NCBI GenBank assembly: GCA_965178125.1
Contig: OZ237740.1
Coordinates: forward strand, 1 to 64,000
Length of the DNA: 64,000 bases
Source of the DNA: Bilabrum cf. latius
Lineage: Eukaryota
Reading direction: 5' to 3'
Part shown: positions 6,248 through 64,000 of the stretch, piece after piece
How positions within the stretch are numbered: the stretch's first letter is position 1
Layout: the number at the start of each line of letters is the position of its first letter
Notes under the pieces: model-generated
What the model was told of the DNA's origin: nothing
The model's database searches: none
The model's input: the letters and a program-made list of their open reading frames with translations, nothing else
Program-made: the position numbers and the translations under genes

Positions 6248-6309
6248 TGTCAAAATTCGAAGATGAAAATATTTTTTCCCCGACCCTGTCCCTGACTTTA
6301 TATTAGATA

Positions 6310-8439: not shown

Positions 8440-8447
8440 CCCCCCCT

Positions 8448-22936: not shown

Positions 22937-25900
22937 ATGGCTGTCTCGAAGGATGCTATCACTCGTGGCCTGAAGGATGTTGAAGATCCTGACAAGGATG
23001 TTCGTTACATGGCAATCAGCGATCTTGCAACAGAGCTAGGAAAGGAAGGACAGATCGACCCCCCTACGCAGCGGAGGTTAGTTGCGTTCTTCGCTTGCTT
23101 TATGATGCAGTCTGGAATGAGCTACAGGTTCATCTCCGCTATGAGAGACATGTTGAGTCACTGCATACTGTGATTGTCGTTTTTGGTGCTGTACGACCGC
23201 CTCAATCAACTCGACTGCCTTGTTTGATCCATCACAGGATTACCGCCGCCATCCTTGAGCGCATGGAGAAGGATGACTCTGCAGACGTCCAGACCATTGC
23301 AGTGCGATCGTGAGATTTGTATGCGCATTCCTGTTGCTTATATGCCGAGGATTGAACTGCATTTTCTGGTCCCTGTCTCGTGTTGCGCGTACATTTTGAA
23401 GCGCAGCCTGAAAGAGCTCGTGTCTGGTGCAAGCGAGGACACCGTGACGCAAGTTTGCAACACCCTGGCTACACAACTGGCCCATGGAAAGGCGGAAATC
23501 AGGGACGTTTTTGCAATCGGACTGAAAAAGGTGGTGTCCGAGGTCGAGGACGAGCAGGGCTTCATTGTGATTCGAGCTCTTCTTAAGCCATTGTACGACG
23601 ACGTGCAGGGTGCTCCTGGTGTCTCGCCAGAGGACCAGTCAGGAATCCGGGTAGAGGCGCTTGACGTCTTGAACGAGCTCCTGACGAGGTTCGGAGGCAA
23701 GGTGGTGGAGGCTGGCAGGACCGGGGCTGCCACGGTCTCCGACGCTGCACTTCTCAGCGTGCTCCTGAACCAACTTGGTGGCGCGGAAGCAGATACCCCC
23801 AAGCGTGCCATGCTTGCGCTGTCAGCTCTGTCGGCCCACCTCTCGGACGACTTGCTGCAGAGGCTCATGGACGCCCTGCTGGGAGCGATCGCCGCGGATG
23901 GGAAGCCGGGCGCGGCGTCGGGCGCGGGTGCGGCTGGACAGCCCTCTCGCATGGTTGTGGTGCAGGCTATCGGGGCAGTGTCTCGGCAGGTGGGCTGGAG
24001 GCTCTCTGCTTACCTAGAGCGCGTGCTGCCGCTGCTGGAGGCCGCCATGGGCAGCCCCGACGAGGAGGGCCAGGAGAGCGACGAGGTGTGCGAGCTCAGG
24101 GAGAACTGCCTGCATGCAGTGGAGTCGCTGGCAGAGCGCTGTGCTGCCGACATGGCGCCGCACGTGCCGCGCGTCCGTTCTCTGTGCTTGCGCTTTATGT
24201 CGTTCGATCCGAACTATTCGTACGAAGACGCCGATGATGTCGCAGGGGAAGGAGACGAGGACGAGTTCGACGACTACGGGGACGACGAGTACGGCGGGTA
24301 CGAGATGGACGATGGGGATGGCATGGACGCAGACGAGGACGGCACCTGGAAGGTTCGAAGGGGCGCACTCCGCACTCTGCGGGCGCTGCTGCGCTCACGG
24401 CCCGAGGATGTGAAGGAGTACTTCGACGGTGCAGCGGGTAGCGGCGGATAGTCGCCCGCCGTGCAGCTGCTGGACCGCGTGAAGGAACGCGAGGAGAGCG
24501 TGAGGCAGGACGTGCTGCAGTGCTTGCGCGAGCTGCTGCGGGCCACGGTGGTGGTGGAGGGAAACGCCCGGGTGGCGCTGCCCGCAGCCATCGCGTCTCG
24601 CCTTGGCATCGTCCAGGCCGAGGGAGCAGTGACCGGGTCCATGGGGGCGGCAGGAGGCGTGGGCATGGCCGCAGCAGCAGCTGCCGGCCTGCTGCAGCCT
24701 CCTGTGCTGGTACGGCAGAAGAGCGCGGCAGATCTGCTCGCCGAAGAGGTGGGGCCCGCCACCCTGGAGAAGCTGTCGGCTGAGCTGAGCAAGCCCTCTG
24801 GGCTCAAGCCAGCGACGCGCAGCGCCATGCTGGACGTGCTGCTGAGTCTGCAGAGGGCCGCAGGAGGCGCGCTGGCGGGGTCTGCAGCGCTGACCATCGG
24901 AGCTGGGGTGTCTGCCCTGGGCACGGACAGCTCGCAGGTGCAGCTGGACGGGCTGCGGCTGCTGACCACGTGCATGGAGATGATGGACTCGAGAGACCTG
25001 CTACCGCTGCTGGGCCCCGTGGTGGACCAGGTGACTCGGTGCTGCGCGGGAGAGTGGTACAGGCTCGTGGCAGAGGCCCTGCGCACCGCCGGCCGCATCG
25101 CCCTCGTGCTACGGCCCATGCAGGACGACGGCTCGGCATTCCGAAGCGATGTGCCAGCGCCTGACAGCGCCCAGTGCAGCAAGCTCTTCGATGCCGTGCT
25201 CGCGAGGCTGCGCGAGGTGGACATCGACCAGGAGGTAAAGGAGAGCGCCATCACCGCCTCTGGGCTGCTACTATCCTCCATGGGCGACCTGAGGCCGGGT
25301 GCAGTAGACGAGGTGCTGCCAGTGCTGCAGGAGAGACTCGACAACGAGGTCACTCGGACGGCCACTTTGCGCGCGCTGACCTTCGCAGCCACCTCCCCTG
25401 CCGCGCTCGACCTGAAGAAGCACGTGCCTGCGGTGCTGGACAAGGTCGCCGCCTTGCTGCGGCAGAAGAGCAGGCAGGTCCGCCAGTCCTCTCTCGCTGC
25501 TCTCGACGCGCTGCTCAGCAAGCACGCCGACGCCTCGGTCGCAAAGGGCCTTGAGCCCGTGCTGCAGAGCACCGCCGCCATGGTGGATGCCAGCGACGCA
25601 TACCTCGCCCAGTTGGCCCTGAGGGTTGCGGTGGACGCGCTCCGGGCGGGACCGGCCGCGGCGGCGCATGTGAAGTCCTACATCCAGCCCAGGGCGCTGC
25701 AGCTGTCGGCTTCGCCCCTGGTGCAGGGGTCCGCGCTCCGCGCACTGCGGAGCTACTTCGAAGCGGCTGTGGAGGTGGGAGGGGCTGCCGCGGTTGGCGC
25801 ACTTGCTGACGCTATCGTGCAGCAGGCGGCAGCTGGGTCTGGTGGTGCGTCTGGCGGGGCAGCCTCCGGGGCTGGTGCAGGAGGAGGGGACGAGGGGGAG

Positions 25901-27387
25901 CAGGCAGGCTCTCCCCGCCGCCAAGGCCTGCTCAACGCAGCCAGGTGCCTGGCATCTGTAGCGAAAGCCGGGGGCAGCGCGGCAAGCGGGATCCTCAAGC
26001 GCTTCTCGGATGACGCTGCTGCTGCTGCGGCCAACCCGTCGGCGTGCTCGCAGTCGCAGCTGCTGTCTGTCACGTCGATCGGCGAGTGTGGGGCCGAAGG
26101 CCTGCTCGCAGGCGATGCTCAGAAGCGCGCTTTCGACTCGCTCATGTCCAGCATTGAGGGAGACGCCGAGGACCTGAAGTCGGTGGCCAGCATCGCGCTT
26201 GGTGCCCTGATCGTAGGGTCCACGAGCGAAGCCTTGCCCGCCTTCCTCGCCCGCCTCAGCAAGGACGACAGCGCTGACAACTACTACCTGCTGTCTGCCC
26301 TGCGGGAGTGCCTGGAGAGGCATGCCCCGGCGACGCAATCGGGCCCTGATTTCAGCCCGGTCGCCGGCAAGGTCCTGCCAATTCTTGCATCCAAGGCGGA
26401 AACTGAAGATGAGGGAATCCGCAACATGGTTGCCGCATGCCTCGGCCTGCTCGCCGCCGCATCGCCCGGCGAAGTGTTCCCTCGCGTCACCGGCATGGCT
26501 TCTGATGGCGCCAGCAGCCCCGGACTTCGATGGGTGGCTTGCACTTCTGTGCGCTTCGGCGTGACGGCAGCTGGGGCGGGGCCATTCGCAGGTTGTGACT
26601 GGAAGCCATTCTTGGCGCTGTTGCATGACGCCGATCTGTCCGTCCGCCATGCAGCACTTCTGACCCTCGGTGCTCTGATCCAGCACGCTCCGAGCTCACT
26701 GCGCAGCACCCTTCGGCTGACAGAATGCAAGATTCCTCTTGAGGCAGAGCCTGAAGTGGATTTGGATGGGGTCGGAGTTTTGCCGCTCCTCTACTATGAG
26801 ACTGCAAGGCACGCTGGCCGTGTTCGCAAGGTGCAGTTGGGGCCGTTCAGCCATGAAATTGACGATGGCCTACCCCTCCGCAAATCAGCCTTCTCTGCTT
26901 TAGATGCGTAAGATCACGCGTAACTCGTATGCGCTTGCACCTCTATCTTAACTCTGCCAGTCCTATCCGCTCGATCTCAAGAACACCAACGCATCGCAGG
27001 ATCTTTACATTCATGAGCGACAGGGCTGACAGTGCGTTCCTCCCAGCTCTGTGCAAGGGACTGCAAGATCCCGCTGATGACGTTATTTTGCTTACGCATC
27101 ATACTCTTCTCAAGCTGATCTCCAACAAGTTTTGGCAGATTCGCGTTACTGCTGCCATCGACGATGTTGTCGAAGGATTGAAGCGCCCCTTCGATGCTTT
27201 GGCCACCGGCAAGAAGAGCAAGATGCCGGGCAATGACGTGCTGCGGTCATCCCTTCGAGTCGTTGATTCAATTTAGTCAAATTGCAAGGAAGCAATGTCA
27301 ACTGCGAAGTTTGAAGCAGTTTTGCAGCAGATTGACTCTATCCCCAAAACGAAGGAAATGCTTGCAGACATTCGGTCAGGTCCTTGA
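22937..27387 (+). CDS. CAND1: Cullin-associated NEDD8-dissociated protein 1 (HEAT repeats)
   Basis: Motifs DKDVRYMAISDL, ELRENCL, DPNY, WKVRR, KEREESVR, DIDQEVKE, RLDNEVTR, EGIRNMVA and GPFSHEIDDGLPLRKSAF. Three GT-AG introns. TAG at 24449 and 27274. TGA at 27385-27387. Confidence 0.96.
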
Positions 27388-30317: not shown

Positions 30318-31127
30318 TCATCAACATTGTGCGCACACGATGGCACCACAGATCTAGTGCAAGGTAAGACCTGCTCGTGAAATAGACATTTTATGGACCA
30401 TGGCTTCTATTCGGCTCATCAAGTTATGTTATCCGACTATCCAAAGCCCCCGAGCCACCCTGTCCCACCTGCCACACGCAGACGGACGCCTATACACTGA
30501 GCAGAGCCAGAGAGATTGTATCCAGCCATATTCAATACCGTGGCTCACCAGCAAGTACCCTTCCGAGTCAGCAATATGCGAGCGAGCATCAATTGTTCGC
30601 CATTCACTGGCAGCGCCAGCCCCATGGACCTGACAGGCCACGGCTGTGGTGCAAGAGCTCCCGTGCACTGTAGCGGGGGTAAATGTCGATATAAGCTCAG
30701 AAGAGAAGGGTGAATCATTGCTGTGGACCCAGCTGCCTCCTATTTGAAGGCAGGATCTGAGCGCGGTCATCATCGATCGTGAGCACTGCGTGCTGGCGCT
30801 GCTTGGCAGACGCTGCCATCTGTCGGGTGGGACACGCAATCGACCTCGACCGGGATGGTCGTTGCTGTAGCAGAAGATATATAAGAATCGCGCCATGCGA
30901 CCATGTACAACGACCATTGGCACCCAGCCTGGTGGACCGCAGCGTGTGATTGTCCAGTCCACAACGCTTGGGGGAGGGCGAGAGCTGGTGCCCCAGTGCA
31001 GTGTAGGTGCAGGCTTGCTCGGCTTCCCGACAATCAGCAGTCGGCCAGCATAGAGTGGATGTTAAATTGCATTGGAAGGCTGCACTCACCGCGACTATTA
31101 CTCGAGGCCAATCCCCACCAGCCATGG

Positions 31128-34100
31128 GGGGATCTGATATTTTGTGGACTCAACTCAAAAGCGCACGCTATCACGAAGAAACATCTGGAACGAGGGCCCG
31201 GGACCTACCAGACTTCACGCTTCAGCTGCAATGGCCTAAACCACCTAAGCTCCACCCTGGGGACCCATTTCCCCCTGGGGAGCGTCAGCGTTCACGTTCC
31301 CTCCGGCGCCCGCTGCCGGCACCCCGTCCTGCTGCCCGTTCTGAGCCAACCCTGCCTTGACGTTGGCGATCGCCACGGCGAGGTTGTTGTTTTCGGCTGC
31401 CCCTACAGCCAGGCTGGCAAAGTCCTCCCGGACCGCCCTTGCGAGCGCCCGTTTGGCCTTCGCTGCAGCCCTCCTCGATCCCTTCGAGACAAAATCGAGG
31501 ATCCTTGAGTGGTCCTGCATGACCCGTGAGTACATAGTGTGGTACACACGCTGTTCCCCGCGCACGTGCTGGTGCTAGGCGGCAACGGAGAGGCGAGCCT
31601 TTGCCACAGAAGACCACGAGAGGCGTGCGTTGGCCGGACGAGTCGAAACCCGCCGCCCTTTGTCCTCCTACCTCTTCTTCCGCAACTTGTCGAGCACCTG
31701 CAGGAACTCGACCGACTTCTCCCCGATTCCCCCCAACACGTCCACCACAAAGGGTACGACCCGCACGCCACTGCGTACCGCCCCTTTCTGCGTCCTCACG
31801 GTCCCAGGACACCACTTGTCTTCTCCTCCGATCCGGACGCCGAGCGCTCCGAGGTCGACGGGCCTGCCGTAGCTGGCCAGCTTCGTGGCATGCGCGGCCC
31901 GCAAAGCAGACCCCTCTTGCCAGTCGCTGCCAATCCTCCACGACGAGCGGTCCCACCGGTAAGTTGCCGCAGTGGAATCAACCACCGTGACATCGATGAG
32001 ATAAGCCGTCCCCTCGTGCTCAAAGAACAGGTCGCCGCGTGGCACGAGCGGACCGCGCCGACCCGGCAGCCGGGCCACTTGGCCCTCTGGCTCCCGGATA
32101 GGGCGTCTGCCCGTGGCCTCGCGGACCACCTGCTCGAGCACGTTGAGCACCCGGAAGTGCCTGCGGCCTGGAAGGCCTCCGCAGACACGCTTGTCCTTGC
32201 ACGTGGCACCGTGGCGAACTGACTAGATCAGTTCGACTACCTTGCCCTGCTTCCGGCACCCCGGGCAGATCTGCGTGACGCGCCACGCCTCCCCACATGC
32301 ACCGTGCGTTGCCCCAAGAGGTTGTGGGGGACAGCTGCACGGCTATGGGATGGCGAGACGCTGGCAGAACATGCCCCGGGCATCTTCAGGCTGGACTCGG
32401 CTCAGGACAGAGAGCGGCGCATGCAGCCAAGACCCGGCTCCTTGGGACCTGGCGGCGCGGATTGTGGCTCGCGCCACTCCTGCGTACTCTCTGGTGACTG
32501 CATCGACTGGAGCGAGTCTGTCGTGCGCAAGCGGAGATGAGGCATCCCAGAGGAGCCTCTCCACCTGCACTCGCTCAGCCAGTGCCGTCACATGGCTCTG
32601 GTTGTGCCCTCCTGCGGCACCTTCGAGAAAACGAATAACCGCCTGCGATGCGGTGGGTGCCGGCTGCTCCCCAGCCAGCTGCCTCGTCACCCATGCCCGA
32701 AGGTCCTTCACCTCCAGGCGCCAGGGTTCAGTGGCCCCACCGCACAGCTCCATACGGGCTGCCTTCTCGGCTGGGCTGCCCAGGAGTTCCGAAGTGCGGG
32801 CTGTGTCCCACACCATACCATAGCGTGGGGGGACGTCAGCCTCCGGAACAAGTGGAAGCAACGGACTCGGGAAACCAGCCATCCCGAAATTGTCTTGCTT
32901 CCCCTCTTGTACGAGTCTCCCGTACTTCGAGATTGCGGTCATCACCGTGTCCACAAGGGAGTTCAGGCGCGCGGTGCGCCCTCGCAGTGGGTTCAGCAGA
33001 GGGGGTGCCTCCCCGGCACCTGCCGCCGCACCTTCCCCGACCTCCTCCGCCGGGTCCCACTGGTTGAGCGCCACCTGCAGGTGTGGCAGGTTGAAATCGC
33101 GTGCTACCCTCGCCAACCAAGGCCACACATCCAACAACCCCCCGACGCACATTGCCTCCCGGGTTAAATCGGCAGGCACGAGCCCCACTCCGAGACCCCC
33201 ACGGGCAACGGATAGCGGACCCAGCACGTCCAACACCTGTCTCTGGGCCTGCGAGAGAGCGCTTACACGCATCCCTGTCAGGAACTCCAGAAACGCTCCC
33301 TACACTTCCTTCAAGTGGGGTGTCACCCCGTCCTTAAGCTCGGGCAAGAGGCACCCGCTCCTGTGCACGTGCGTCCACGCCGGCACTACGCACCGGGCAA
33401 ACAGTGCGCGCGCACTGATTGGGTCCAGGTAGGCCAGGCGAAAAGCCTGGACCACCGTCTCTTCCAAGCGTCCCTTCAAGACTTGTTCGGCCACTCCGAC
33501 TTCGGTCCCTACCGGGACGCCCAGGATCCTCAGCCCATGCTCGTGGACCACTCCTTCGAGCCTATCCTCCTGGTCTGGCGCCAATAGGTGGACCAGGCGC
33601 TAATAGGTGGCTCGGGAGGGGGAGAAGAACGACGTTTTCTTCTAGTTGAGGGAGAGGCCGACGTCCCCCAACTTCCCCTCCAACGTGGCGATGGCTGCCC
33701 TGACATTATCTAGCTCCCCCAACAGGAACACGTCGTCAAGGTACGCTACTAGGTACACATCCATGTGGGCAATCTTTGTCGCTTTCAGAGCGCCCTAAAT
33801 GGCTGCGCAGAACAGCGCTGGAGACAATGGCGACCCCTACAGCACCCCCTCCAGGTTCTGCACAAGCTCTGTTCCATCCTCGCCAGACACAACACCATGT
33901 ACTGCGTGCTGCAGACACTGGTGTACGTAAGTGCCCAGTCCGGTGGACAGCGACGCCAAAGCTTGCAAGGTCGCCTTCCGATGGATGGAGCCATATGCAT
34001 CCGAGGCATCCAGCGCAGCGACCACCCACTCAGGGTTAGCGCTGAGAAGAACCTGGATCGTTGCAATGGCTCCGTCCATCCCGCACTTGAGCCCCGCCCC

Positions 34101-35698
34101 CATCTGGTGTGGGGCGCAAGCTCGCTACACCTTCGGCAGCAATTCGGGCCGAAGGGCTCGGCTCACAAATGTATGCCACTGAGGCTGGATTGCGATGACC
34201 CTGAACTCCGAGCCCCCCTCCCCTTTCGGGATTGGGACCCCTCGAAACAGGCCCAGGCACGCGAACAGGCACGGCGGCAGGGCTCCCTCAACCATGGACT
34301 AGCAGAAGGCATGGAAGTCGTCATAAAGCCGCTTCACATCAGCTCCCTCCCCGGTCAGCAAGGTTTTCAGCACCTCTCTCGTCACACCAAAAGCATCTGG
34401 CGCCTTGAGTCGCAGGGCCTTCTAGACCTCCTCCCCTAGTCTAGCCCCCGACAGCTCCACCACATGCTCGCGCGCGTCTCCTCCAGTTCCCCCTCGTCGG
34501 CCTCTTCGCACCGGGCGTGTCCAGCGGAACCTGGGGATCGGCTGGGACCTCTTGGTGCGAAACTTCCCCTAAACCTTCGCCTGCATTTCGGCTGCCGTAC
34601 CCCTAGCGTGGGGCCTAGCAGCCAACCGCGACATGGCCTTACGGTAGTCCCCGATCGACAGAAACCGGAGGCAACTGCGTACTGCCTTGCGCGATGGGGG
34701 GGAAGGAAGTCCCTTGCCACTGACGCTGGAAAGGATACCCCCCAACTTCTCCACAATCCTCCCGCGGGCTGCGAGAGACTCGGGATCATCAGATGGGGAG
34801 CTCCCACTCTTTCGGTCTACCACGGCTCCACCAGCTATGGCTTCCTACTCAGCGGCAGCTTCGCGCGGGACACGAGAATCCGACGGCCGGCGACACAGCA
34901 AAACAAACACTTTCAGCTTATGTAAAGCCTACAGCGTGAGCTTCTCCTCCAGTTCTTTGCCTTTACCAGAATCGTTGGTCCAGGCGGAGGATACATTCAT
35001 AGTCTCCTTCAGGAAGAGAGAAAGGGCGGCTCGCGCCTCCTTTTTCTAATCTAAATTCATACTACGAAGCGCTGTCTCGCGTTCGGGCCAGAACGCACAC
35101 TCAAGGATCAGCTTGCGAACGTCGTCGGGCAGTGGCACTGCCTCCAACTCAGCCGCCTAATGCTCCGCAGGAACCCCCGCTCCGGCCCCGCCGGCAACTT
35201 GTGGGACTGCATGTGGAACATTTGCTTCACCCTGATCTGCATCTTCTTCAGCTGCGGCGACTGCGGCATTATCTGCCCCCGGCGCCGCCTCAGCAACCAC
35301 GATTGCTGCACCTCCGACCGCCGCCTCACCCACAGGCTAGGGAGGCTAAGCGTGACCGAAGTGCTAGCGTCCAATGACTCCGTCGGAATCAGAATCATTG
35401 GAATCGGGGGGGTTGGGGACTCCTGGTCCGGTCTAAGCGGCGCTGGCAGCACCGGCAGAATCCTTGGCAAGTAACCTTCCCAAGGCGAATCTTTGCGCGA
35501 CTCCCACACCCATTCTGGGCATCTTACCCTTACCGGCAACACGCCCTGAACGTAGGACGATCTGACCCCCCCCGGGGTCATCCATTTCCCAAGGAGATTG
35601 CCATCCAATACATTTGTAGCGTGCAGTTAGGGTTTCTTTCCCAGGATCTTGCCTTGCCAAGAACACGCCTGTATTCTGGCACCTGACATTGTGGGGTT
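31128..35698 (-). mobile_element. Non-LTR retrotransposon with restriction-like endonuclease (CRE-like, R2 superfamily), apparently intact
   Basis: Single ORF encoding RT, a CCHC knuckle and a PD-(D/E)xK-type RLE. Boundaries are taken from the 10-bp direct repeat CCAGCCATGG at 31118-31127 and 35699-35708. No poly(A) tail seen, so the ends are tentative. Confidence 0.88.
31215..35585 (-). CDS. Retrotransposon polyprotein, RT + CCHC + RLE, about 1,456 aa
   Basis: One frame with 23 TAG and no TAA/TGA. Motifs in order: GDYRKAM, KAPDAFG, IPK...FRVIAI, PHQMG, LDASDAY, GVL[TAG]GSPLSPALF, AYLDD, GLSLN, ILGVPVG, GGLG, AGSWL, CPGC...HGATC...RH, RGDL...IDVTV, K...Y, VPFVVDVLG, RLSVAA[TAG]. Confidence 0.93.
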
Positions 35699-35704
35699 CC
35701 AGCC

Positions 35705-38700
35705 ATGGACGAATTTCGGTCAATATGTACTATCCTTTAGTCTGATATGCCGGTTGATGAATTGGTTCCTTCGCTCTAGTGTCTACCAGCCAAGCTTCGC
35801 ACCACATTTTAGCATGATGCCAGCGTGGACGACTTGCAACGAATGGGACTTGTACAGTGCTGGAAAGAGTGCGTGCCATCAGTTGTGAAACGAGTGTCTG
35901 AGTTGAAACTGGGCGGCAACGTGCCTGCATCTAGCGCAGCGAGAGAGTGCTTGGCTGCATGCGCCCGAACCTGCGGCCTCATTTTGCCGTGCTTGCCGAA
36001 GGAAGCTATTGCTTGCCTGTCTTGCTGTACGGACGCCTCGAATCATGTGTATTCAGATGAAGAGCCTAGTGCTGGGGCAAAGAAAGACGGTGGGGAGGAA
36101 GGAGCAGCGCCCTCGGGTTCGTCAACCGACGACACAACTTGGCGCAAGGCCCTGGGGTTCCAGGGACTGGTAGATGTCGTCACCACCGCCCAAGGAAAGT
36201 AGACCTGGAAGACAGGAACTATCATGCTCGAAGTAAGTCCACAATTAGCGGCGCCATCGTGCAGAATGCTGCTCAGTTTTGCCACCCGGCGAATGCCGAT
36301 ATCCTCCTCTATGTTAAATCACCTACAATGCGCGTTGCATCGCAGGATGGCGACCATCTTACAGTGTTCTTCGAAGATGGAACCCCGGAGCAGGTGGTCG
36401 ATCGTTTCGCCCCCACGCTGCAGCGGCCAGCCACCATGCTGGGCAAGCCGGTGGAGGCGGCTCCGGGTCCAGGGGCTCAGGGCGCCTCTTCCTCCTCCTC
36501 TTCTGCAGCAGCCGGCGGGGCACAGGCAGTCGCAGACGTGGATGCAAAGCTGGCGTGGGCAAATTTGCTTCGTCCCGGTGACGTGATCGACGTGGAGGAC
36601 AGGGAGCGGCGGTGGTCGAGTGCCACGGTGGTGCACGCGGGGGAGATGCCTGGGTACTAGGTGAGCGGCATCACCGTGGGCTTCAGGGTGTACTGCTCTG
36701 CGGGGCGCAGCACGGACCGCAAGGGGCGTCGCTACGACGGCCTAGGCGCAGAGTGGGACGAGGCCATCTCGCTGATAGCCGGGAACATGGTGCGACTGGA
36801 CAAGCCGGGGGCCAGGACCAGGGGCCTGGCCTACTGCCTGCTGCCTCCCGGGATCGACGCAGGCATCGACGATGCGGATGATCCGATCATTCGACTAGAG
36901 GGGCCGTCTCGCGATGCGGCATCTGCAGCTGCCCCCGCACCAGCAGCTGCTGCAAGTTCGTCTAGCGATGTCGCGGGATCAGCCGCTGCCCCTGCCCCTG
37001 CCCCAGCTCCCATCCCTGTTCCTGTCCCAAAAACAGAAGCAGGGGCAGGAGCAGGAGACGACTCGAGCGACGATGGAGTTCTGGATGAGCACGCCGAGGA
37101 GCAGCCCGTCCATCCTACTCCCGCCACGCAAGCTCCCGGGCTTGCCAAGCAAGCACCAGACGGAGCACAGCCTGGTCCCACACCCGCCTCGAGCGCTTCG
37201 TCTGCTGTGGCAGCGGCATCGACTGGTCCAGCGCCTCTGTCCAATGTCACGACGGAGCAGGCACAGGCTGCTAGCGCTGGCGACGCGAAGAGCATCCAGG
37301 CTGTGCTGGACGTAATCAGGGCAGCGCTCGTGCCCATGCCCGAGTCCGCCAGTGCCAGTGCCAGTGCCAGTACCAGTGCCGGCTAGGGCGCTGCTGAATC
37401 GCGGCCGCAGTTGATGGGGCAGTACCCAGTCCCCACCGCACCCACTGTTCTTTAGCCCCAGGTCCCCATGGATGGGTATTCAAGCCCATACGGAGGTGCT
37501 TAGACATAGGGGCAGTCGTTGTATGGAGGTGCGCAAACGAACCCATACGGGGCCGCACAGGGGCAGCTGGTGCACGGTGGCCTCATCGGCCACGGCGGTT
37601 CTGGTGCTGGTGCTGGTGCTGGTGCTGGTGCTGGTGCTGGTGCTGGTGCTGGTGCTGGTGCTGGTGCTGGTGCTGGTGCTGGTGCTGGTGCTGGTGCTGG
37701 TGCTGGTGCTGGTGCTGGTGCTGGTGCTGGTGCTGGTGCTGGCGGTGCAGGCGTGGGTGCCGTTGGTGCTCCTGGGCCTGCTGATGCACGCCCCACTGCC
37801 GATACCTTGGTCATTCATCGCCGCGGACTGTCTTCCAATGAGGTGTTGGCTTCTATCCGAGCTTTTGCGGATAGCGGTGGCTTGTCTGTTCTGCTGGCAG
37901 GACTGCTTAGCTTCGTGTCGCCGGGTGATGCTGTCGCCTCGCTCCGATAGTATGGCCGTGCCCCCGATCTGGCAGACCTGCCTGTGTTCTTGGACGCGCT
38001 GCGGCTGCTGGGCCGGGTGTGGCCGCACTTGAATCGGCACGCAGTGGCAGCCGTGGGTGCAGTGCTATCGACAGTGGCTGAGGGATGCAGCCGCAGCCTC
38101 GGTAAGGAGAAGGTCCTCAGGAGCTTTCAGCCGGAGCACGCTATGGCACTGGACGAGACACTGCCCCCTGTGCTGTGGAGGCACTGTGGAAGGCAGGAGG
38201 TGCGCCAGCTGACCCGCAGCGCGCAATGGTCACTCGTCTGCAGCGCGCTTTCTGGACCCCTGTTTCCCCCCAAACCGCTTGCCATCCGAGCTATGGGCCA
38301 AATGGTGTCTCAGTATCTATCTGGAGAGCTAAGAGAACCGCAGCAGTTCAACTATCATGGAGGACGGCCCATGCCGCACCCTCTGCGGTTCGCCGTGCAG
38401 CCCTGGTTGACTCCAACCCGGTTGCGAAGACTCATGGAGGAGCATGGGGTGCTGGACCGCATCTTCGGGAGCGGCGGGACACCACAGTGGTTTGGCGAGG
38501 CACTTTCTCGGCTAGACAAGTGGGCACAGGACTACGTGAGCCCCGTTCGAATGGAGCCCGGGGAAGAGGGTGCTGGCCGCGACGAGCAGACGGAGGGTGT
38601 GCATGTTTGGCAGCAGTGCGAGCCCGCGCTGGTGGAGGTCTCGGAGCCTCTCTTGAAAGCCATGGCACAGCACGGGCAGTTTCAGGGGCCAGTGGTGCTG

Positions 38701-41700
38701 TCTGTGCTTGGGCCCATCCTGCGTGGAGAAAAGCGCACGAGCGTGGCAACCGTGTGCGAGCTTCTGCAGTCTGGCGCCTCGTGGATCGAGGAGCCGCCCA
38801 TGTCCGTGATGAGCCGTGTGTTCCTTTAGCTTCGAGACGATCGCGTCAAGACGGAGGTGGTCGAGTGCGTCTTCAGGCTGGCCCGGAAGGGGGGTGGCCA
38901 CAAGAGGGCCTTCAAGAACTACCCGTTTGCCTCGCTCTACATGCTGGATACGCTTTACGCCTGGAACTCGGAGGAGACGGCCTGCAGTCGAGAGGCGAAG
39001 GATCTCGCAGGGGAGCACCTCGTCGAGTTGCTGTGCTCATCGAACTTTTACAGGTTCTGCAAGCTCTTCTACGCGAAGGCATTGCTGCAGCCGCTGTAGT
39101 CCAAGGGTCTCACCACCGGTCTACGGCTGGCGAGTCGCATCGCGAATGTGATCAAGGAGACTGGAGGAGGCTAGCAGCACGGTTTGGGCTACCATGTGGT
39201 ACGACGAGATGCTATCCTTAGCTACGTGCTAAACGACGCGGACAAATATCACAAGACCCTTCTGAGTCGAATCGGCTCCTACTGGCAGCGCTGGAAGCAG
39301 CAGCAGGCAGTCGCTCTAAGGGACGTGCCGTGGAAGGACCGAGCCAGCTACGTGGTTGGACTGTACACGTACATGCAGCACGTGCAAGGTCTCCTTGAGT
39401 TCCTGGGCGATGGCCTCAGGCAGAGCAACAAACGAACGGTGCTCACGAGAGAACTTGCGCTGCTTCTCTTTGACACGGGCATCCAGGGGGCTCTTTGCGA
39501 GGAAGAGCACCAGGCCTTCGCCACGTGGATGGTGCGGCTGCTGCGCGACCATCGGAGCGGCTCATGCACTGCTATTGACGCGTATGTGCCCGAGGCCGTT
39601 CTAGAGCAGAGGTTGCTTAAAGGAAACGGGTGGATCCTGAAGGCAGTGACCAGTGCGCAAACTGCCAAGCCAACTCTGCCCGTAGAGTCCGAGTCGGCCG
39701 GGCCGGGGACCGGGTCTGCTGCGGGTGGCCCTGGGAGCCAGGCTGGTGCAGGTCCAGGGGGCATCACGACAGGCCGCGCTGAGCTAGATGGAGTCACCAG
39801 AGCACCGCATGCTGCCGCTGGAGGAGCTGCATCTGGCATGGATGCGCTATCCAAGTCTGGTGCTCCGCTCCTCTCTGGCAGCAGTGACCAGGTGTCTCTC
39901 GCTGATGCCACCATGGCCGACTTTCGGCTGCTGCAGGAGTTCACTGGAGCGTAGTGCACGGCGCAAAGCATCGTGGATCACGTCCAGGACAGCTCTCTCC
40001 TGGCGCACTATCTACAGGGAGGTTCCGAGATCGACGTGATTCCCAAGTCTCCTCCAGACTTCATTGGTAGCCTGGCGAGTCTGTGGCAGATTGCGACTTC
40101 TGCGAAAGATGATCGTGTTGCTAGAGACGCGCAGATTCTTGTGGCCGAGTTCTACGGCCGCTGCCTGACAGCATGGGGCGGTATGGGGGCAGTGCCAAGA
40201 GAGCCCATCACGCAAGAGTTTCTGGACAAGTGCAAGAAAGCGCTTTCAGACAGCCTTCAAGGGTCAGGAGCACACGACGCCTGCCTTATTCGCAAGCGCA
40301 CATTGTAGCTGGTGCTTCGAACCATCTCTGCCTCTCATGCCGAATCAGTGCGACGTAGCGAGATCTCAGGTGGGACGGGCTGCTTGCGATCTCATGCGCA
40401 GGTACTGCCCGGCCAGATGGCTCCAATCACTGTGGACGCCTCATCTGTACCCGGAAACGGCCCGGATGGGAGGCCCATCCCAACCAAGCTCGTGCTGCCG
40501 ATGCGGTCCAACTCGTCGCTGGCTGACTTGAAGCGATGCGCGGCATGGGCACTTCGGCTGCGCCCGGAAAGGATCGAGTTGTGCGTGAAGGCACTGGATG
40601 ATTCTAGGCACCATAGTACAGACGGGCTGGAGTTCGGCACTCGGGAGGCAGACGGCATCGACCACACCAGCAGCTGGCTCCGGGCCCGCAGCAAGCACCC
40701 GATCCCAGAGTGGGCGGGCTCGCTGCTGCTCAACGAGGTTGGAATGGCGCGCCAATCTGGCGTTGAGGTGGCTGCGTCCATTAAGCGAGCCGGTAAATCA
40801 CCCTTGATTGCCGGCGCCGGCGGTGCAGCGGCCGGTGCATCCCAGCGAGAAGTCGCCCCCCTAGTGGTGGACGGTGGCATGTCGCCGAGGCTGCTAGCGG
40901 TCGAAAAGTGCATCTTTGACTGTTTTGCATCGTATGTGGTGCCTGGCGGCGAAGTAAAAGCTGACGGGGATGACACGAATTCATCGTCCGCAGCTACGGC
41001 AGCTACATCGCAAGAAGACAGTTCCAGCTCTGATGCGCGCCACCTCCCTGGAGCGATCCAGGCTCTCACCAAGCGTGACGTCGCCAGGCTATTCACTGCG
41101 TGGGGCAGCAAGATGTATACATCAGCCAACAGTGACGTGATGAAGACTGTCAACGTACACTCGACTTCCGGGGGCCAGTTCTTGACTCGATCAGACTTTC
41201 ACAGTTTCCTAGCTACCCGGGCCATGGACAAGGAAGGTGCCACGCTTCGGTCCGAGCTGAAAAAGCTCGGCTGGAGGAAGGATCTTGTGCGAGACGGAGA
41301 CTTGCTCGAGGACAAGATGGGCGTGCCGGAGGAGATTCTCGAGATGGCGAGGGCTGGGCAAGCCGAGGTGGACCGGTTGGCGATTGCCTCGGCTTGGGTG
41401 CAGAAGGCGGCCAAGGAGGAGTAGCGCAATAGCGGGGGTCTAATGGCCACAGCAATCGTCAAACAGACCGAGTGGACGCAGCTGCTGTTCCGCATCGCTT
41501 CGACGGACTCACCTCAATCGGCGCGGATTGCATGGACGGTACTTCGTTCGCTCCCAGTGCACCCTGGCCTCATGGCACAGCTGCGGGGGTTCGTGTACCA
41601 GGATCGGGGGCAAGCAGACATGCGTCAGCACGCCGAGCGCTCCCTTGCACAGCTCTTGGGGGGTGAAGGCTGGCTGCTGCCTGAGGGGCATGGAGAAGTC

Positions 41701-44700
41701 TCAGTCCAGTACGACAAGATGGTTCGATGCTACTCAACGATTGCGCTGCTGGGCCTCATCAGGGCGCACGTGGACGACAAATGGGAGCCCAGCGCACCAC
41801 CCGAGCTCGCCAAACTGTCCTCTACCGGATCCTACCGCGGCCGCTCGCAGTCCTCCTCCATTGGCACTGGGCGCGGGCAGCAGCCCATGCAAGACCAGGA
41901 TGGATACAATGGCGGCAGCACGCCTGATGATCCTGTGCTGCCATTTCCCGGCCCTGCGGTGCTGGCCGAGTATGACGCCTCCCTACTTGATGGCCAAGTG
42001 TCTGTAGCCAAGAACCTTACCACTGCAGAGCGTGCGATGTTGTTCCAGAACTTGGCCAGCACTAGCATTGTCCAGTAGGCAGCCACAGCACTGGGAGTGC
42101 GGAGCGTGGCGGGGGCCCAGACTGCCGAGGCAAACTCGTTCCAGTCCGCGTTCAGCGACCACTTTGCAAGCGTAAACTGCAACTTGCTGAGGTTCCTGCT
42201 GCTGTCAGAGTCGCAGGCCCTTGGCAGACTGGGGCGGGCGCGAGGTATGTCCAGTCCCATGGGTAGGTAGCGCTCCCACGAGGCCGCGGCACTCGGGGCT
42301 CCTGTGGGCTCGGTGCAGCACGAGGCTGCCTCAGGAGCTGGGGCTGGCGCTGGCTCTGGGGTCGGATAGGGCGCCCCTGTCCGACTGGCTTCGCAGGGCT
42401 CTACGAGAGCTACCGGAGCACTAGGTCAGGGAGGTTCCATCGTGAGGCAGTGCATGCCCGACAAGAACATCGGACCAATGCTCGAGCTGCTGTCGGAGGA
42501 GGCTGCCCATGCTGTGCTCGCCACCAAGGTCAGCGAGGCTGCCAACAAGGCCTGCTCCGTGCTTTCCCTCGAAGGCTTGGCCAAGGATGTCATAACGCTT
42601 GCGGTGACAGTCATCCATCAACAGCTGACCCTGGATGGAGCCACCCTGGTGGAGGCCCTTGTGTCTGTGTGGTACGCTGCCGCGTCTGCGAGCCCCTCCG
42701 TGGTGCATCAGGCGCTTGCCGACGATCGAAAGCAGGTGCTGATGTAGTTGCTGGAGTTCGACGGCCCCCACGGGCCTCGCATCCGCCGAGCATGGGCAGC
42801 TGCCCTCCTCAGAGCCACTCGAGTGCTCACCAGCGAGCCCACCGGCGGTTCGGGACTAGCGGGTGCGACTTTAGACTGCAAGCACGCCCTGCTGGTGGAG
42901 CTGCTGCCCAAGGGTGCCGAAGACTTGCGCAAGACATCCCCGGAACAAAGCGCTCTCATCTGCAGGCTGGTAGAGGACATCTCCTAGAGCGGGCTTGCAT
43001 CCGGTGCATTGGACGGTGCCTTGCTGCAGGACAAGTGCACTACTCTTTTGTAGGCTCTTTTTACCATGCAAGTGGTGGAGGTCGAGCCACCGTCGCCGAA
43101 AGACGCCTCCTTCGAAGCTGCGCAGCGCATTGGGGTCGCGGCGCTCTCGGCGGTGGAGGCGGAGGAAGCCACGCTGGTGTCTGCGAGGCCAGTAGAAGAT
43201 GCTGCTCCTGAATACATGCAGGACGATGAGGACGCCAGTCCGATTGCAGTGCAGCGAGCCAGGGACTTGTTGCTGTCATCCAGCAGCTCTTCCTCCTCGG
43301 CCATGTCTGGGGGCGCCACCGCCGAAGATGCGATTCTCTTTGAGGCAGCAAATTAGATGGACAGCTGCTCTGCGGCCGCGTCCGCTGTCTTGCCGGAGTC
43401 CTCACTGGACGACGAAAGGGTGATTTCAGTACTTCAGCTCCTCACCACGCTAGGCACTTGCTTCCCTACTTCTATGCAGGAGGCTGTGCGGGCGGTGGAG
43501 GAGGGGGCGGGAGTATGCCTGTCGACGAGGCCCTGGACCTCGGAGGGGCTGGATGCAACGCAGAAATACTGCCTGGAGCACTAGCAGGAGGCACAGATCC
43601 CAGGATGCAGGCTGGCCGTTGCCATCATGGAGCTCTGCGTGCTCCCGCCTTTGCCAGACGATACGCCCTCGAGCGGATTTGGGGTAGTGGAGATTTCGCC
43701 CGACACGCACCCCATGCCCCTATGCAAGCGACCAAGGTCACGCCAGGCTGCGTTCAATGCCATCCGCAGCTTGCTCAGTAAGTACCCGCTGGCAGCGCCA
43801 TGCGTCCTCCAGTCCTGCATCCGACCGAGGCTGGACAGTCTACGCAAGCCCCACGACGTGCAGTTCGATCCATCACGACGTGCGAAGGCTTCCAGCGGAG
43901 CCATCGGCCTCAAGAACTTCGGCAACACTTGCTACATGAACAGCACGCTGCAGCAGCTGTTCTACATCGAACCGCTGCGCAATGTAATTCTTACGGTCGG
44001 GGATGCCAAGCCCATTGCTGCGGCCACGGAGCAGCCCTCGGCAGGGAGCAGCGGAAGTATGCGGCTGCCTCGTGATCCCCGCGCCATCCGCGTGCTCTCA
44101 TCGGTGCAAGAGCTCTTCACTGCGCTGTTATCGAGCGACAAACAAGACTACAAGCCGCAATCGCTGATTTGGTCCTACACAGAGATGGGCAAGCCAGTCA
44201 ATGTCAAGCAGCAGAAGGACGCCCATGGATTCCTCTCTGGACTGCTAGACACCCTGAGTGAGGGCCTCGCGGACGCCAGCACGGCGCTGTCGTCCGGAGC
44301 GTCAGAGAGCAAGTCGGCGGAGGACGGGGGCAGTGGTGCTGATGCCGCGAGGGACATCCACAGCATTTGCTACTGCGAGTACGACACTAAGAAGACGTAC
44401 AAGGAGCACCCCGAGGTCTAGAGCAAGTGGTCTAGAGACGAGACGTGCCTAGTGGGAGTTGAGGTGAGGGGCATGGATAGCGTGGGACAGGGCCTCAGCA
44501 AGATGCTGGAGCCACAGGCCATCGAGGACTACAGAGCGCCCGATCTTGGAGGGGAAGTTGTCACGATGGAGACCCACCAGACCATCCGGAAGCTGCCTCC
44601 GTTCCTCTTCCTGCAGCTGCAGCGCATGACATTCGATTACAGGGTGGGCGACACGGTCAAGCTCAACCACAAGGTGGAGTTCCCGCTGGAACTCAACATG

Positions 44701-47700
44701 GAAGAGTACACCACCGAGGGCCAGTTGTGGCGGCAGGCGCGGCAGGCATCGCAGCCCAAGGAGCAAGGTGAGTCTTCCAACGAAGCTGGCGCCGGGGATG
44801 GTATTGCAGCGCCTGGTGATGCCGCGGGCGGTGGCGCAGCAAGCGGCGCTGGCGGGCCCGTCGACGCACCGCCGGACGACGCTCCGCCGGCAGCTGGTCA
44901 GCCGGAGGGGGGTACGCCTGTGGACCTCCCCCCTCATTTTTCCGAGCTGCCAACGGGTCCTTATCAATTGCAGCCCAAGTCGTACTACGAGTACGAGCTT
45001 TAGGGCATCGTAATTCACAGAGGCACGGCTCAGTCAGGCCACTACTACTCGTTCATCAGAGACAAGAATGGGAAAGTCGAGCACTCGTGGCTGCGGCTGG
45101 ACGACTCCACCGTGGCGGCCGTGCAGCTCCCCCCTGATGCCCTCGAGCAGGAGGCATTCGGTGGTACGGGAGGGGGCGGGCCGGTCGACCCCGAGCTGGC
45201 GGCACTAGGGTTCAACTCACAGAACGAGGCGAACGCGTACCTCCTCGTCTACAGGCGGAAGGATGATGCTGGCGCCCCGTTGGATACGCCTTCTGCGGAT
45301 GCAGCAGCCGAGAGCGCCGGCACGGGCGAATCGAAGCATGACGACGACGGAGTTCCACCCAGTGGGCCGCCGCCCCCGTACAGCGCGTGCGGTGACACCG
45401 CCACGGCTGCCAGTCTTCGAAAGGCACAGCCTGCGCTGATGCGTCAGAGCTCTACCCGTTCCAAGCTGCTGGCCTGCCCGGAGTCTGCGAGGTCGCTTAC
45501 GGCGACTGCCAACTCTCGCTTCTTGCTGGACCGTCTGGTCTTTCAACACGATTTCTTCGCCCTCTTTGCCGACCTGGCAGCTGTGGCATGTCCCCTGCAG
45601 AAGCTGGACCTCGCACTATCGCCTTTCAACACGGTGCTGCGGGTCACGGTTGAGGTAGTGGCTCGGGCCAAGAGCGCCGAAACGCTGCCTCTGCTGCGAG
45701 CTGCTCTCACGAGCGGCGCTTCAGCCGCGCCGGGAGGAGCTTTGGCCGCTATTGCTGGGCTCACCAACTTGCAGGATTCCATTGGCAAGGCGGTTCCAGC
45801 CGGATCTGCCTCCACCGAGCCCCTGCGCATTCAGTTCTCCCACACGGGGACTGCGTTGCAGCAAGGGCTGTACGATGCCGAGCGAGTGATGGTGCGGATG
45901 GAGCTGGGAGCTCTCTTGGCCGAGCTCTTCGCACGCGCCGCAGGCGGGGTTGCGGGCGAGAAGTTCATCCGTGCCGTGGTTCAACTGAAGCCAGGGGAGC
46001 ATGGCCCGGTGCTCGCGCCTCGGGAGGGAATGGGGTGGTGGCAAGCTCCCGAAGGCAAGCAGCTGCGCTATCCAGAACAACCTACCGTGCCGTATAGCCA
46101 GCTGGCTCGCGCCCTCGACTTTGACGCAGAGGCACTGCCGCTGCTCGCAGCTAGCTCTCTTGTGATCGGAGAGCTCCTACCTCTGTGCCTGAAGAAATGG
46201 TTCAAGTTTGACGAGGCCATGCGTGCTGTGGCCTCTATGGCCGCGGCATCGCCCGCCTTCCGAGCGTGCCTGCTGTGGAGCGGAACTGTAGCGTTGTTGG
46301 CTGACGTTGCCTTGCAAACGCGGTCACCGCTTCAGGGCGCCGTGGATCCCAATACGATGCAGGACAAACCGCGCAAGCATGTAGGCAACTCTGCCGTCAG
46401 CCCGAGGCTAGGCGGGATCCTGGCTGCTGTGCTAGCAGTCGGCTCTCACGTGTCACTGAGGCAGCCCGACCAAGCCGCGGTGCCTCCGCAGGACCAGGGC
46501 GCGCTGGATCCGGCCACGCCGGTTTGCGCCGTGCTCAGCAGCTCGTGCGTATACCCGGGGGGCGTGCCCACCGATGCTCGTGGATTTACCGTTGGATATT
46601 CGCACGAAGCGATGGGCAGTGTGGCATCCGTGTCTGATGCCTGCATCAACGGAGGCAATGACAAACCAGAGGGGGCCAAAGAGGGCGGCTCAGACAGACA
46701 CGCCATCACCGGTACAATGCTGGTGCCTGCACCCCTCGAAACGGTGCACGGGGGCTCTGCAGCCGCCTCGAAGGTTGATCCAAGCAGCCATACGACCCCA
46801 ATGCAGAGCGACTTGGCTGTCAGGACATTGCTGACTTCGCCTGCGCTGGTGGCGGAGGCCGTACGCTCGGGCCACGCGTTCTACACCGCGGCTCTGCACG
46901 CCGAGAGACTTGCAACCTGCGCGCCTGCCTCACTACCCGGTCTCGTGTCTGAGGCTGTGGAAGGCCTCAACAGCGGCGGGGCCGACGTGAGGCTCCGGGC
47001 CTGGGTGCTGGCGGGTGTGCTTGTGCGCGCTGTCAACACGATTGACGACCTGAAGGCGCCCCTCAGAGCCTACCCTCCCCCCGAACCGCCTGTCCTGCCG
47101 CAAGACACGGGAGCTGCTGGGGGGCAGTCCGGTGCAGCGGCAGGCTCAGCGCCGGCTTCATCTGTGCCGGAGAAGTAGCAGTCCGGTGGGATTCTCGGAA
47201 TATTTGGTTGGGGCGCGCAAACTACTTCGCCTGTGCCTGCCCCTGCGTCCACTGCTGCGCCTAGCGCGCAGGCCGGTACGGGACAACCCGGTGCGGGGTA
47301 TCAAGACGACAAGAAGGACTGGGACGAGCCAGTAGGCGACTCTGATGAGGAGGAGGCGGGCGAGATTACGTCCAAGTCTTAGCCTGCTGGCCAGATCTAG
47401 CCGCCCAGCCTGCTCATGTCGACTGGGACCTCTGTCTCCGGCGAGGACCGAGGACAAGAACACGCGCACGATCCCGAATGGACCTTGCTGCCAGTGCGGC
47501 CCTAGGATCGAAGCAGCAAGTGGAATGAAGGCAGACAGGCAACCGCTCTGCATCTGTGGCTCATGTGCTCGCTTATCGGTGGCCGCAAGGTGGCCGTTCC
47601 ACTCCCGCCAGCTGCTGCTGAACCTGACACGGTGCCGTTCAACGCGATTCCCATCGAGGACGGAGGATTGCCTGGGATCCTGGGGGCCATATTTTCGAGG

Positions 47701-48378
47701 AGAAAAGTGGCTAAAGCAGCGCCCAGGGTTATCACAGAGCTGCTGCTTGCATATGTGCAACTAGCCAAGCACTCGCCAGAGGCCACGCGGTCTGTGTTGC
47801 GCTGCGTGCAGGGCACCGTTCCGCCTGATTTCAAGGGCAGTCAGGATCGATGGCTCGACTTCACGCGGAAGACAGTCGCGATGCTTTCCAATTTCACGCA
47901 GGACTTGACCCGCCCGGCTGAGCTGCACGAGGTGCATGTGCTGCAGCGGGAGCTTGACAGGTTGTCTGGGCGCATCTACGGCACGCTTCCGCCTAAGGTT
48001 TCCACCGAGAAGACCGAGAAGACTCTCTTCCAAATGTTCGCTGATGGTAGCAACAAGACTATTGCGATCCGCGTCAAACTTATTGAGGACCCCATGAGCG
48101 ACAAGGGGGCGGAGGTCTAGTGGATCGTCTTTAGCAAGCACAGGGACCCAGTCCAATTTGAGTTTTGGTTCGAAGATGGCACGCATTTTGCATACCCAGA
48201 AGAGGCGCTGAACTACCGGCTTACCAAGGAGAGGATCGTAAAGATGATCAATCCCGACGAGGTCAAGGTAATGTACCGCTCACCTGTGCTCGATCCAGAG
48301 AACGAGTGCCAGGTAGAGGACGATAAGTGGTCATACTACTGGAAGGCCTTCGCACCGCAGTATGTATACCGCCAATGA
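35705..48378 (+). CDS. Giant ubiquitin carboxyl-terminal hydrolase (peptidase C19), USP9/USP24/USP34-like, about 4,190 aa
   Basis: ATG 35705 in gccATGg context, intron 36233-36345, then a ~12-kb exon with only TAG interruptions (about 30 in the gene). Cys box GLKNFGNTCYMNSTLQQLF, QQKDA, His box GIVIHRGTAQSGHYYSFI, LDDS and NAYLLVY. TGA at 48376-48378. Confidence 0.9.
37603..37740 (+). repeat. Coding microsatellite (GGTGCT)23 encoding (Gly-Ala)23
   Basis: Perfect hexamer run, in frame within the USP gene. Confidence 0.97.
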
Positions 48379-62800: not shown

Positions 62801-64000
62801 TTACGTGCTGGTGATCCAACACCACCTCCTGCACCACCGGCACCACGTCGGATTCACCTGCCATCGAGCCACCGAGAGCCATGCACACCTGCCCTCTCGT
62901 GGGGAGCAGCTCGCTAGTTTGCATCTCGGGAGTGACGTAGGGGTCACGGATGGCGAGAACTTCGACAGGGCCGAACTCGACCGACTCTGCCTCTTGATCG
63001 TGGTCCGTTGTGCCATCACGATGCACCTTGGCTCTCGCGGACAGCAGGTCCAGAGGGTGCATGCGAGCCTGTTCCTCCTCCTCTTTCGAGCCCCGTGCAG
63101 CGCCATTCAGGGAGCCATTGGCTCCGCTGGGAGCATCAGACTAGATCCGAGAGCGGAAGCTGGAGATGGGCATGGCAGTACCCAGCTTGCGGAGTCCTGG
63201 GCTCGGAGTGGCTCCAGCTTTGGCCTGCCTGTCCTCGTGGCCAGCAGCGGCTCGCACGGCTTCCTCTATTCCAGCGATACCATCCTCCTCTTGCGATCTC
63301 GGACGGATTCGTCCGGCCCGTCCTGCCCTCTCAGGGGGGCGCACCGGTGACATCTCCACGACCACGTCCACTGGGGTCACCGGGGCAGCTGGGCCCCTCT
63401 CCTTGGGCGCATCAATGTGCCTCGCTGGGGGACGCACGGTCCTGCACCGCTCTTCCCAGGCATGCGCCACTGCAAGTAGCTCCATTTCAGTTGTGAAGGC
63501 CGTGACACGGGCCATGTAGGGCATTCCGGCCTTCAGCTGCTTTTCCCCGTACAGTGGCTGGCCGTCGCAGTGCCCAGCGTACTCGACCTGACGCAGCATC
63601 GCCTCTCGTAGCCTCCAGACGCGCACGCGGTGTCGAATCGGTACCCAACTGTGCTGCCCAGGAAGACCACCGGTGCACGGATACAGATCCTGCGAGCTTG
63701 TGCCGGCAGTACGATCATCGTTGGCGCCCGTAGCTGTTGCCGCGGCGCTGTCCATCGCCTTTCCGGACCTGCCGCCTGCGCCCACTGCAGGCAATCTGCG
63801 CCCAGTTAATGCAGCGTTTGGGTTAGCCGAGGCCTGCACAATGATGGGCCCCCTATCCATGGCGAGATCAACCGCATCGCTGTCCATGAGCCCCCTGTAG
63901 CCCCTATTTCGCACCCCTGGAGGCTGGAAGGCGTATAGCTCCACTTCCCGTGCAGGCAGCCCCACTCGCCTGCGAAGGCACGCAAGCAGCTCCCTCATGT
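59868..64000 (-). CDS. Ubiquitin-specific protease (peptidase C19), C-terminal part; 5' end lies beyond the window
   Basis: SLQHCL...WRCSSC...LPPLLVVNLVRF...INFP, YDLAGIVCHAG...GHYTAF, WWECDD and AYLLFYRR. Five track ORFs share one frame linked by TAG. The first non-TAG stop is TAA at 59868-59870. Confidence 0.9.

Follow-up and report, generated by a model that had tools for sequence, protein, structure and literature searches.

In-frame TAG at the conserved glutamine of a retrotransposon reverse transcriptase and evidence for a UAG = Gln nuclear code in Bilabrum cf. latius

Introduction

The meanings of UAA and UAG nearly always change together, with few nuclear exceptions according to the available text of two reports (PMC11687900, PMC5304391). 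The fornicate Iotanema spirale reads UAG as glutamine and still uses UAA as a stop (Panek et al. 2017; PMC5304391), and in the ciliates Hartmannula sinica, Trochilia petrani and Protocruzia tuzeti UAG alone has been reassigned to glutamine (McGowan et al. 2024; PMC11687900). In the accessible part of the latter paper, the list of UAG-only codes contains no stramenopile. For Cafeteria, a host of giant viruses, the text available mentions a non-standard code for the mitochondrion only, in which UGA is read as Trp (PMC6972860). Nuclear recoding in a stramenopile was not found in the literature searched, which consisted mostly of papers outside subscription. For a UAG = Gln code in Bilabrum, the searched literature, as far as its text was available, gave no support.

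The present study concerns positions 1 to 64,000 of the forward strand of contig OZ237740.1 (assembly GCA_965178125.1), hereafter the window. On its minus strand, a retrotransposon carries TAG at the invariant Gln of the reverse transcriptase (RT) QG motif, a codon that a first-pass annotation, made from the letters alone, had called the strongest single site for the identity of TAG. It is the best single site tested in the window, but one transposon site is weak by itself; the proof that TAG means Gln comes from single-copy host genes and a tRNA.

Results

The QG motif of the reverse transcriptase

Positions 33851-33795 of the minus strand translate as EGVL-TAG-GSPLSPALFCAAI-TAG. The codons quoted in the first-pass annotation for EGVL*GSPLSPALF are present and the motif EGVL-Q-GSPLSPALF occupies 33810..33851 (minus); the interval 33795..33839 given there does have real TAG codons at both its ends, but the quoted motif spans 33851-33810. 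The TAG at the invariant Gln lies at 33837..33839 (minus; residue 714 of the stop-to-stop frame) and a second in-frame TAG at 33795..33797 (minus; residue 728). The catalytic AYLDD follows in frame downstream, as had been claimed, at 33732..33746 (minus), and the RVT_1 domain extends over 33516..34211 (minus; Pfam PF00078, residues 590-821, E 5.7e-15).

The homolog search used a query translated with TAG as Q, the alignment itself was made with TAG as X, and the removal of 4 fragments of the same element family from 150 matches left 146 homologs. The column of the QG-motif TAG holds Q in 145/146 and a gap in one, in accordance with the near-invariance ascribed to this residue. The neighboring residues G711, G715 and P717 are found in 144, 142 and 125 of the 146 homologs, respectively, and the two D of AYLDD in 145 and 144. 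The proposed alignment to RVT_1 with TAG as X gave 61.4 bits, and among the residues placed at TAG the score was highest for Q (68.4), followed by E (63.9), K (63.4), S (62.0), L (60.6), Y (60.4) and W (59.0). The claim that this TAG stands for Gln is supported, the proof being supplied by the host genes and the tRNA described below. At the six other TAG sites of the RT region, Q was the top residue at one only (residue 728, 66/146). A PDB search with the RT returned weak matches only (E 0.037 or worse).

If TAG is taken as sense, the frame runs on for 1,587 codons that include 25 TAG and neither TAA nor TGA, more than chance would give, and the adjoining frame for 4,105 codons with 28 TAG. 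The contigs of runs X1, X2 and X3 that cover the QG codon agree with the TAG. Reading TAA, TGA or TAR as sense was also tried and rejected, as the genes of the window stay closed.

The retrotransposon and its copies

The RT belongs to a non-LTR retrotransposon of 4,474 bp with a short C run at its end (31126..35599, minus strand), whose ends are common to three other full-length copies and which is flanked by the target-site duplication ATGGC at 35600..35604 (5' side, minus) and 31121..31125 (3' side, minus). Its single ORF, from ATG to TGA (31215..35585, minus; 1,456 aa), contains 23 TAG, 38 CAG and 10 CAA codons. Two further minus-strand motifs were recognized by eye, a putative zinc knuckle of the form CxxC...H...C at 32199..32267 and RGDL...IDVTV at 31983..32039, a putative restriction-like endonuclease core; neither had a Pfam match at E 0.1.

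Among described elements, the closest to it are single-ORF non-LTR retrotransposons with a C-terminal restriction-like endonuclease (CRE-like). Like elements of this type, it has one ORF, an RT with QG and YLDD, the Cys/His and nuclease-like motifs seen by eye, target duplications, and 5' truncation; unlike them, no target site common to the copies was found here, and a short C run replaces poly(A). This C run ends all the element copies (31126-31131 in the present one). The element stands head to head with a ubiquitin-hydrolase gene, about 100 bp upstream of the ATG of that gene (35599-35705). The share of TAG among Gln codons is 23/71 (32%) in the element, 331/2,867 (12%) in other ORFs and 278/3,044 (9%) in dyneins.

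A DNA search of the own genome with the element gave 11 matches. The three other full-length copies have about 99% identity and open frames of 1,454-1,460 codons, the 5'-truncated copies have the 3' end in common, and run contigs end at 35599 and 31126, the boundaries of the element. The alternation of TAG, CAG and CAA that the first-pass annotation had proposed to look for at the QG codon is absent: TAG is present in all seven near-identical copies that cover the codon, three copies do not reach it, and a diverged relative (L008, 84%) is gapped, with a gap at this very codon. Swaps of TAG and CAG occur at other codons. At residues 1212 (32343..32345, minus) and 1437 (31668..31670, minus) the present copy has TAG and four other open-frame copies have CAG, while at residue 1427 (31698..31700, minus) it has CAG and the four have TAG; the swap at residue 1212 is also seen in contigs of runs X1-X3, and residue 687 is swapped in one more diverged copy. 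All four TAG-involving differences among the copies are TAG/CAG, and no new TAA or TGA was found in the near-identical copies. The differences from the full-length copies are mostly synonymous (33 synonymous versus 8-9 nonsynonymous in two copies and 17 versus 9 in one).

These data bear on the case that had been named as fatal to the Gln reading, namely that under the standard code the TAG is a nonsense mutation private to one decayed copy. TAG is one transition away from CAG and diverged, gapped relatives such as L008 do exist, but TAG in seven of seven covering copies, the open frames of 1,454-1,460 codons without new TAA or TGA in near-identical copies, and the mostly synonymous differences do not fit a dead copy. 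As host genes behave alike and the dynein genes alone contain 278 in-frame TAG, this explanation is refuted and retains a vanishingly small probability. The element is an intact, live or recently live retrotransposon and not a pseudogene.

TAG in host genes

The ubiquitin-hydrolase gene of the window (35705..48378, plus; UCH E 3e-46) ends in TGA, and has an intron at 36233-36345 and in-frame TAG in both exons (4 in exon 1, 27 in exon 2). TAG as sense is also needed by the genes for a UDP-sugar pyrophosphorylase (12085-13722), CAND1 (23228-26911), an M14 carboxypeptidase (48596-52567), a RING protein (53602-55473) and a second ubiquitin hydrolase (59868-63998). The public gene calls P0244 and P0248 stop just before TAG sites.

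A larger sample was obtained from the dynein heavy chains, for which 19 genes were located and 10 kb of each was fetched. The 28 Pfam AAA_6 matches contain 20 internal stops, all of them TAG. With TAG as sense, 18/19 stretches can be read through their whole 10 kb without meeting TAA or TGA in frame; 278 in-frame TAG were counted in 62,876 codons, and in the other two frames TAA occurs 112 and 206 times and TGA 1416 and 1230 times. The TGA that closes the dynein stretch L107 was considered as a gene end and ruled out.

The dynein TAG sites were compared with 120 outside homologs, a site being counted as covered if at least 60 of them were aligned, which gave 161/278 well-covered sites, 46 of them in columns that were at least 90% conserved. 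The conserved residue is Q at 28/46 of these TAG sites, and at 285/456 and 35/57 of the corresponding CAG and CAA sites; the remaining 18 comprise 7 E, 2 R and 9 singletons, and residues other than Q are just as frequent at the CAG and CAA sites. The summed log-likelihood for the TAG residue is highest for Q (+53), with E next (-139). The residue profile of TAG correlates with those of CAG (r=0.989) and CAA (0.982), with 0.46 for the next codon, and the mean frequency of Tyr is 0.010 in TAG columns, 0.009 in CAG columns and 0.515 in TAC columns. A contrary site was found in PRP8, where TAG aligns with P in 5/5 alignments shown, and three TAG sites of UAP gave no residue signal against their homologs.

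Based on these comparisons, the nuclear code is very probably one in which UAG encodes Gln and UAA and UGA are stops (the pattern of NCBI table 15), genome-wide, and the retrotransposon uses the code of its host. The commonest eukaryotic variant in the sources available, table 6, in which TAA and TAG both encode Gln, can be set aside with near certainty, since 18/19 dynein stretches have no TAA over 10 kb and the dynein counts refute it; furthermore, the eRF1 gene ends in TAA, and no TTA anticodon was found among 46 tRNA calls, an incomplete set.

Gene ends and transcripts

All six gene ends that were checked are TAA (eRF1) or TGA (PRP8, GlnRS, GluRS, UAP and pelota). In a sample of about 540 kb, 71 ORFs less 9 rows, chiefly element copies, left 62 other long ORFs, ending in TGA (52) or TAA (10), some of these ends being intron read-in; 57/62 have TAG inside. 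TAG falls within the last 30 codons of 10/62 ORFs versus 6.2 expected (p 0.10), and because of this slight excess near ORF ends an occasional use of UAG as a stop is possible. Such a context-dependent code, with UAG read as Gln inside genes and still ending some, would also be in keeping with the intact GTS, NIKS and YxCxxxF motifs of eRF1. Nevertheless, the excess falls short of significance and is inflated by intron read-in, the six checked genes all end in TAA or TGA, and context-dependent codes have been described, in the text available, where no dedicated stop is left, whereas two remain here. We regard a context-dependent stop as improbable, although it is the least improbable of the alternatives, and full reassignment of UAG to Gln remains the preferred reading.

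The GT..AG intron at 36233-36345 is skipped in contigs of runs X1-X3 and kept in X5, and the RNA origin of the run contigs is read from this splice joint alone. In the spliced X1 contig, which links 35675-36232 to 36346-37379, all 5 in-frame TAG are unchanged (0 differences), and their retention argues against editing, on few sites. Editing of TAG to CAG in the mRNA would give protein alignments that look alike, but the five unedited sites, in contigs only, together with the existence of a cognate tRNA(CTA) gene make it highly improbable that the codon is decoded as Gln in that manner rather than directly.

eRF1

The eRF1 of this genome retains the motifs GTS, NIKS and YxCxxxF and lies on a long branch (0.45). 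Compared with 95 full-length homologs, it has G33A, N34D, S64V, F121P and K134H among 20 substitutions flagged protein-wide; G33A and N34D stand just before GTS, and S64V changes TASNIKS into TAVNIKS, all of them rare substitutions. A fast-evolving eRF1 with these substitutions may terminate poorly at UAG. Its own gene (L014:1068-2941, G000:C35) has two in-frame TAG, one being the last codon of an exon. Residue 48 is TAG where Q is found in 89/94 homologs, and residue 73 is TAG where L is found in 89/95 and Q in 6. As a matter of speculation, if eRF1 had kept weak activity at UAG, its own TAG codons would feed back on eRF1 synthesis.

A metagenome locus with an eRF1 about 92% identical (L068) has TAG where the present genome (G000) has CAG, and its gene ends in TGA; none of the other 24 of the 25 loci has a stop inside the eRF1 match. 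This one site suggests that the code is common to a second species.

A tRNA with anticodon CTA, and GlnRS

A single-copy tRNA gene with anticodon CTA is located at G000:C23:907607-907679 on the minus strand (L113; 69.8 bits). It was missed by pattern searches and found by an Rfam tRNA search, which gave 48 matches with 63 of 780 candidates scored, and in which it is the best nuclear match among those scored. With other patterns, tRNAs for Trp, Asp, Pro and Arg were recovered; the pattern searches did not find His and Leu tRNAs or a third tRNA with a Tyr-type acceptor. ARAGORN labels tRNA(CTA) as Pyl, from the anticodon alone.

Among 30 other distinct tRNAs, the closest to tRNA(CTA) is tRNA-Tyr (39/57), and the two tRNA-Gln types score 34 and 32; this whole-body score of 39/57 is reached by 9/417 pairs. 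The acceptor stem equals that of tRNA-Tyr at 12/14 positions and those of the two tRNA-Gln types at 2/14 and 6/14, a match of 12 being reached by 2/417 different-isotype pairs, and the acceptor and anticodon stems together match tRNA-Tyr at 20/24 (background 8.2 +/- 3.0, maximum 17), in regions picked after looking and within an incomplete tRNA set. C1-G72 is common only to Tyr among the 31 distinct tRNAs, and the variable loop has 5 bases, as in Tyr. In turn, the D stem (8/8), A37 and G73 match tRNA-Gln(TTG), and 12 positions agree with a Gln type but not with Tyr, versus 9 that agree with Tyr only. Of the Tyr determinants, G34 and A73 are lost in this tRNA, and G73 and G2-C71 are present. 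Because of this mixed make-up, with a Tyr-like acceptor, the loss of G34 and A73 and the presence of G73 and G2-C71, an origin from tRNA-Tyr is plausible, and we propose it with clear reserve.

In E. coli, Gln is inserted by amber mutants of tRNA-Tyr that carry G73. The determinants of eukaryotic Tyr identity are A73, C1-G72, G34 and U35, those of bacterial Gln identity include G73, G2-C71 and U35, and amber tRNA-Trp and tRNA-fMet accept Gln, according to the available text of one report (PMC9976931).

The Tyr-like acceptor with its kept C1-G72 and the Pyl label could indicate that the residue at TAG is not Gln but Glu, Tyr, Leu, Ser, Lys or pyrrolysine, or that Gln and Tyr are mixed, and E is indeed the conserved residue at 7/46 dynein sites. 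The log-likelihood, in which Gln leads the next residue by about 190, stands against this, as does, for Tyr, its frequency of 0.010 at TAG columns, near the 0.009 of CAG and far from the 0.515 of TAC, low-level mischarging being invisible to alignments. Pyrrolysine does not agree with a UAG that acts as an ordinary Gln codon and not at special sites. Any residue other than Gln is accordingly considered very unlikely.

One GlnRS and one GluRS were found in the genome. The GlnRS gene (L183:3076-5715, G000:C33) has 0 TAG among its 20 Gln codons, and its anticodon-binding region has FG versus KR in E. coli and human; FG at this place also occurs in plants. The two tRNA-Gln types (L118, L139, L140) are alike at 31/57 positions and have the discriminator bases G and T, which suggests a tolerant GlnRS. 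Several AT-rich nuclear tRNA-Met(CAT) genes (L125, L134, L138, L145-L147) equal tRNA-Pro(TGG) at 41-42/57 positions; they are possible organelle-derived copies or another identity switch.

The organism and its genome

The assembly comprises 48.6 Mb in 111 contigs with about 55-60% GC. The best named match of its eRF1 is Cafeteria roenbergensis (69%); a quick eRF1 tree of 37 rows joins it with Cafeteria at a weak support of 80, and in a 40-row dynein tree it falls among the stramenopiles with support 1.0, beside metagenome proteins. ORFs of the 38.4-kb mitochondrial contig are open with TGA as Trp, a reading also reported for the mitochondrion of Cafileria in the text available. Judged from these sequences, the host is a stramenopile, most likely a bicosoecid that is a relative of Cafeteria without being identical with it.

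In the main rDNA array, the 18S gene is divergent and 1,700 bases long. Another 18S gene, which differs from it and has 1,802 bases, lies on a 17.9-kb contig (L012, L150; G000:C95) and probably comes from a co-cultured eukaryote. The window begins with a telomere repeat (1-546), followed by a 155-bp tandem array (4606-6247) and a second, internal telomere tract of 2.1 kb (6309-8442), which suggests a chromosome end that was healed or duplicated, or else a join made during assembly. The viral contigs showed no match to tRNA(CTA), no GlnRS locus and no RT locus.

Discussion

Our data are consistent with the following route, which may have led to the present code. In a tRNA-Tyr, a change of G34 to C would have created the CUA anticodon, and A73 to G together with a Gln-type D arm would have switched its identity, such that GlnRS would charge a tRNA that keeps the tyrosine C1-G72 acceptor stem. 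Whatever its origin, tRNA(CTA) is probably charged by the single GlnRS found and reads UAG, and its C34 cannot pair with UAA. A CUA anticodon pairs with UAG and not with UAA (PMC5304391, in the text available), which fits the retained TAA stop. The combined proposal, of a first nuclear code change in a stramenopile together with a UAG-reading tRNA that derives from tRNA-Tyr and is recharged by GlnRS, is put forward tentatively. A natural Tyr-derived Gln suppressor was not found in the literature searched. If the proposal is true, the code change would have behind it a natural switch of tRNA identity, from Tyr to Gln.

A single assembly of 48.6 Mb and 111 contigs shows the code together with its candidate tRNA, eRF1 and GlnRS. 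This makes it directly testable how eRF1 gives up UAG but retains UAA. For annotation, this genome and related metagenome contigs need translation with table 15, since public gene calls break at TAG. Moreover, as Cafeteria hosts giant viruses, viruses in which TAG means Gln have a candidate host in the present lineage.

Concerning the described systems, the closest named eRF1 is that of Cafeteria roenbergensis/burkhardae, which also resembles the present organism in reading mitochondrial UGA as Trp, and differs from it in genome size and composition (34-36 Mb and about 70% GC versus 48.6 Mb here) and in an eRF1 that is 69% identical (PMC6972860, in the text available). The closest code is that of Iotanema, in which UAG is likewise Gln and UAA a stop, in an unrelated lineage. 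In the accessible text on Iotanema, however, a tRNA(CUA) was predicted, expected from tRNA-Gln(CUG), and not found, whereas the gene was found here, and its eRF1 carries T32G, whereas the matching Thr (T36) is intact here and two residues before GTS are changed. H. sinica and T. petrani yielded no suppressor tRNA according to the part of the report available (PMC11687900), in contrast to the CTA tRNA gene present here; in the earlier UAG = Gln cases covered by these sources, then, the tRNA either remained a prediction or went undetected. Suppressor tRNAs with CUA are encoded in the genomes of Oligohymenophorea sp. PL0344 (PMC10553269) and of ciliates with UAG = Leu, as here, but in the available descriptions these tRNAs are closest to those of the inserted residue, whereas the closest tRNA here is Tyr and not Gln. 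Compared with these systems, the UAG = Gln code of the present genome is very probably a further case of a known rare type, and the tRNA route by which it is read is possibly new.
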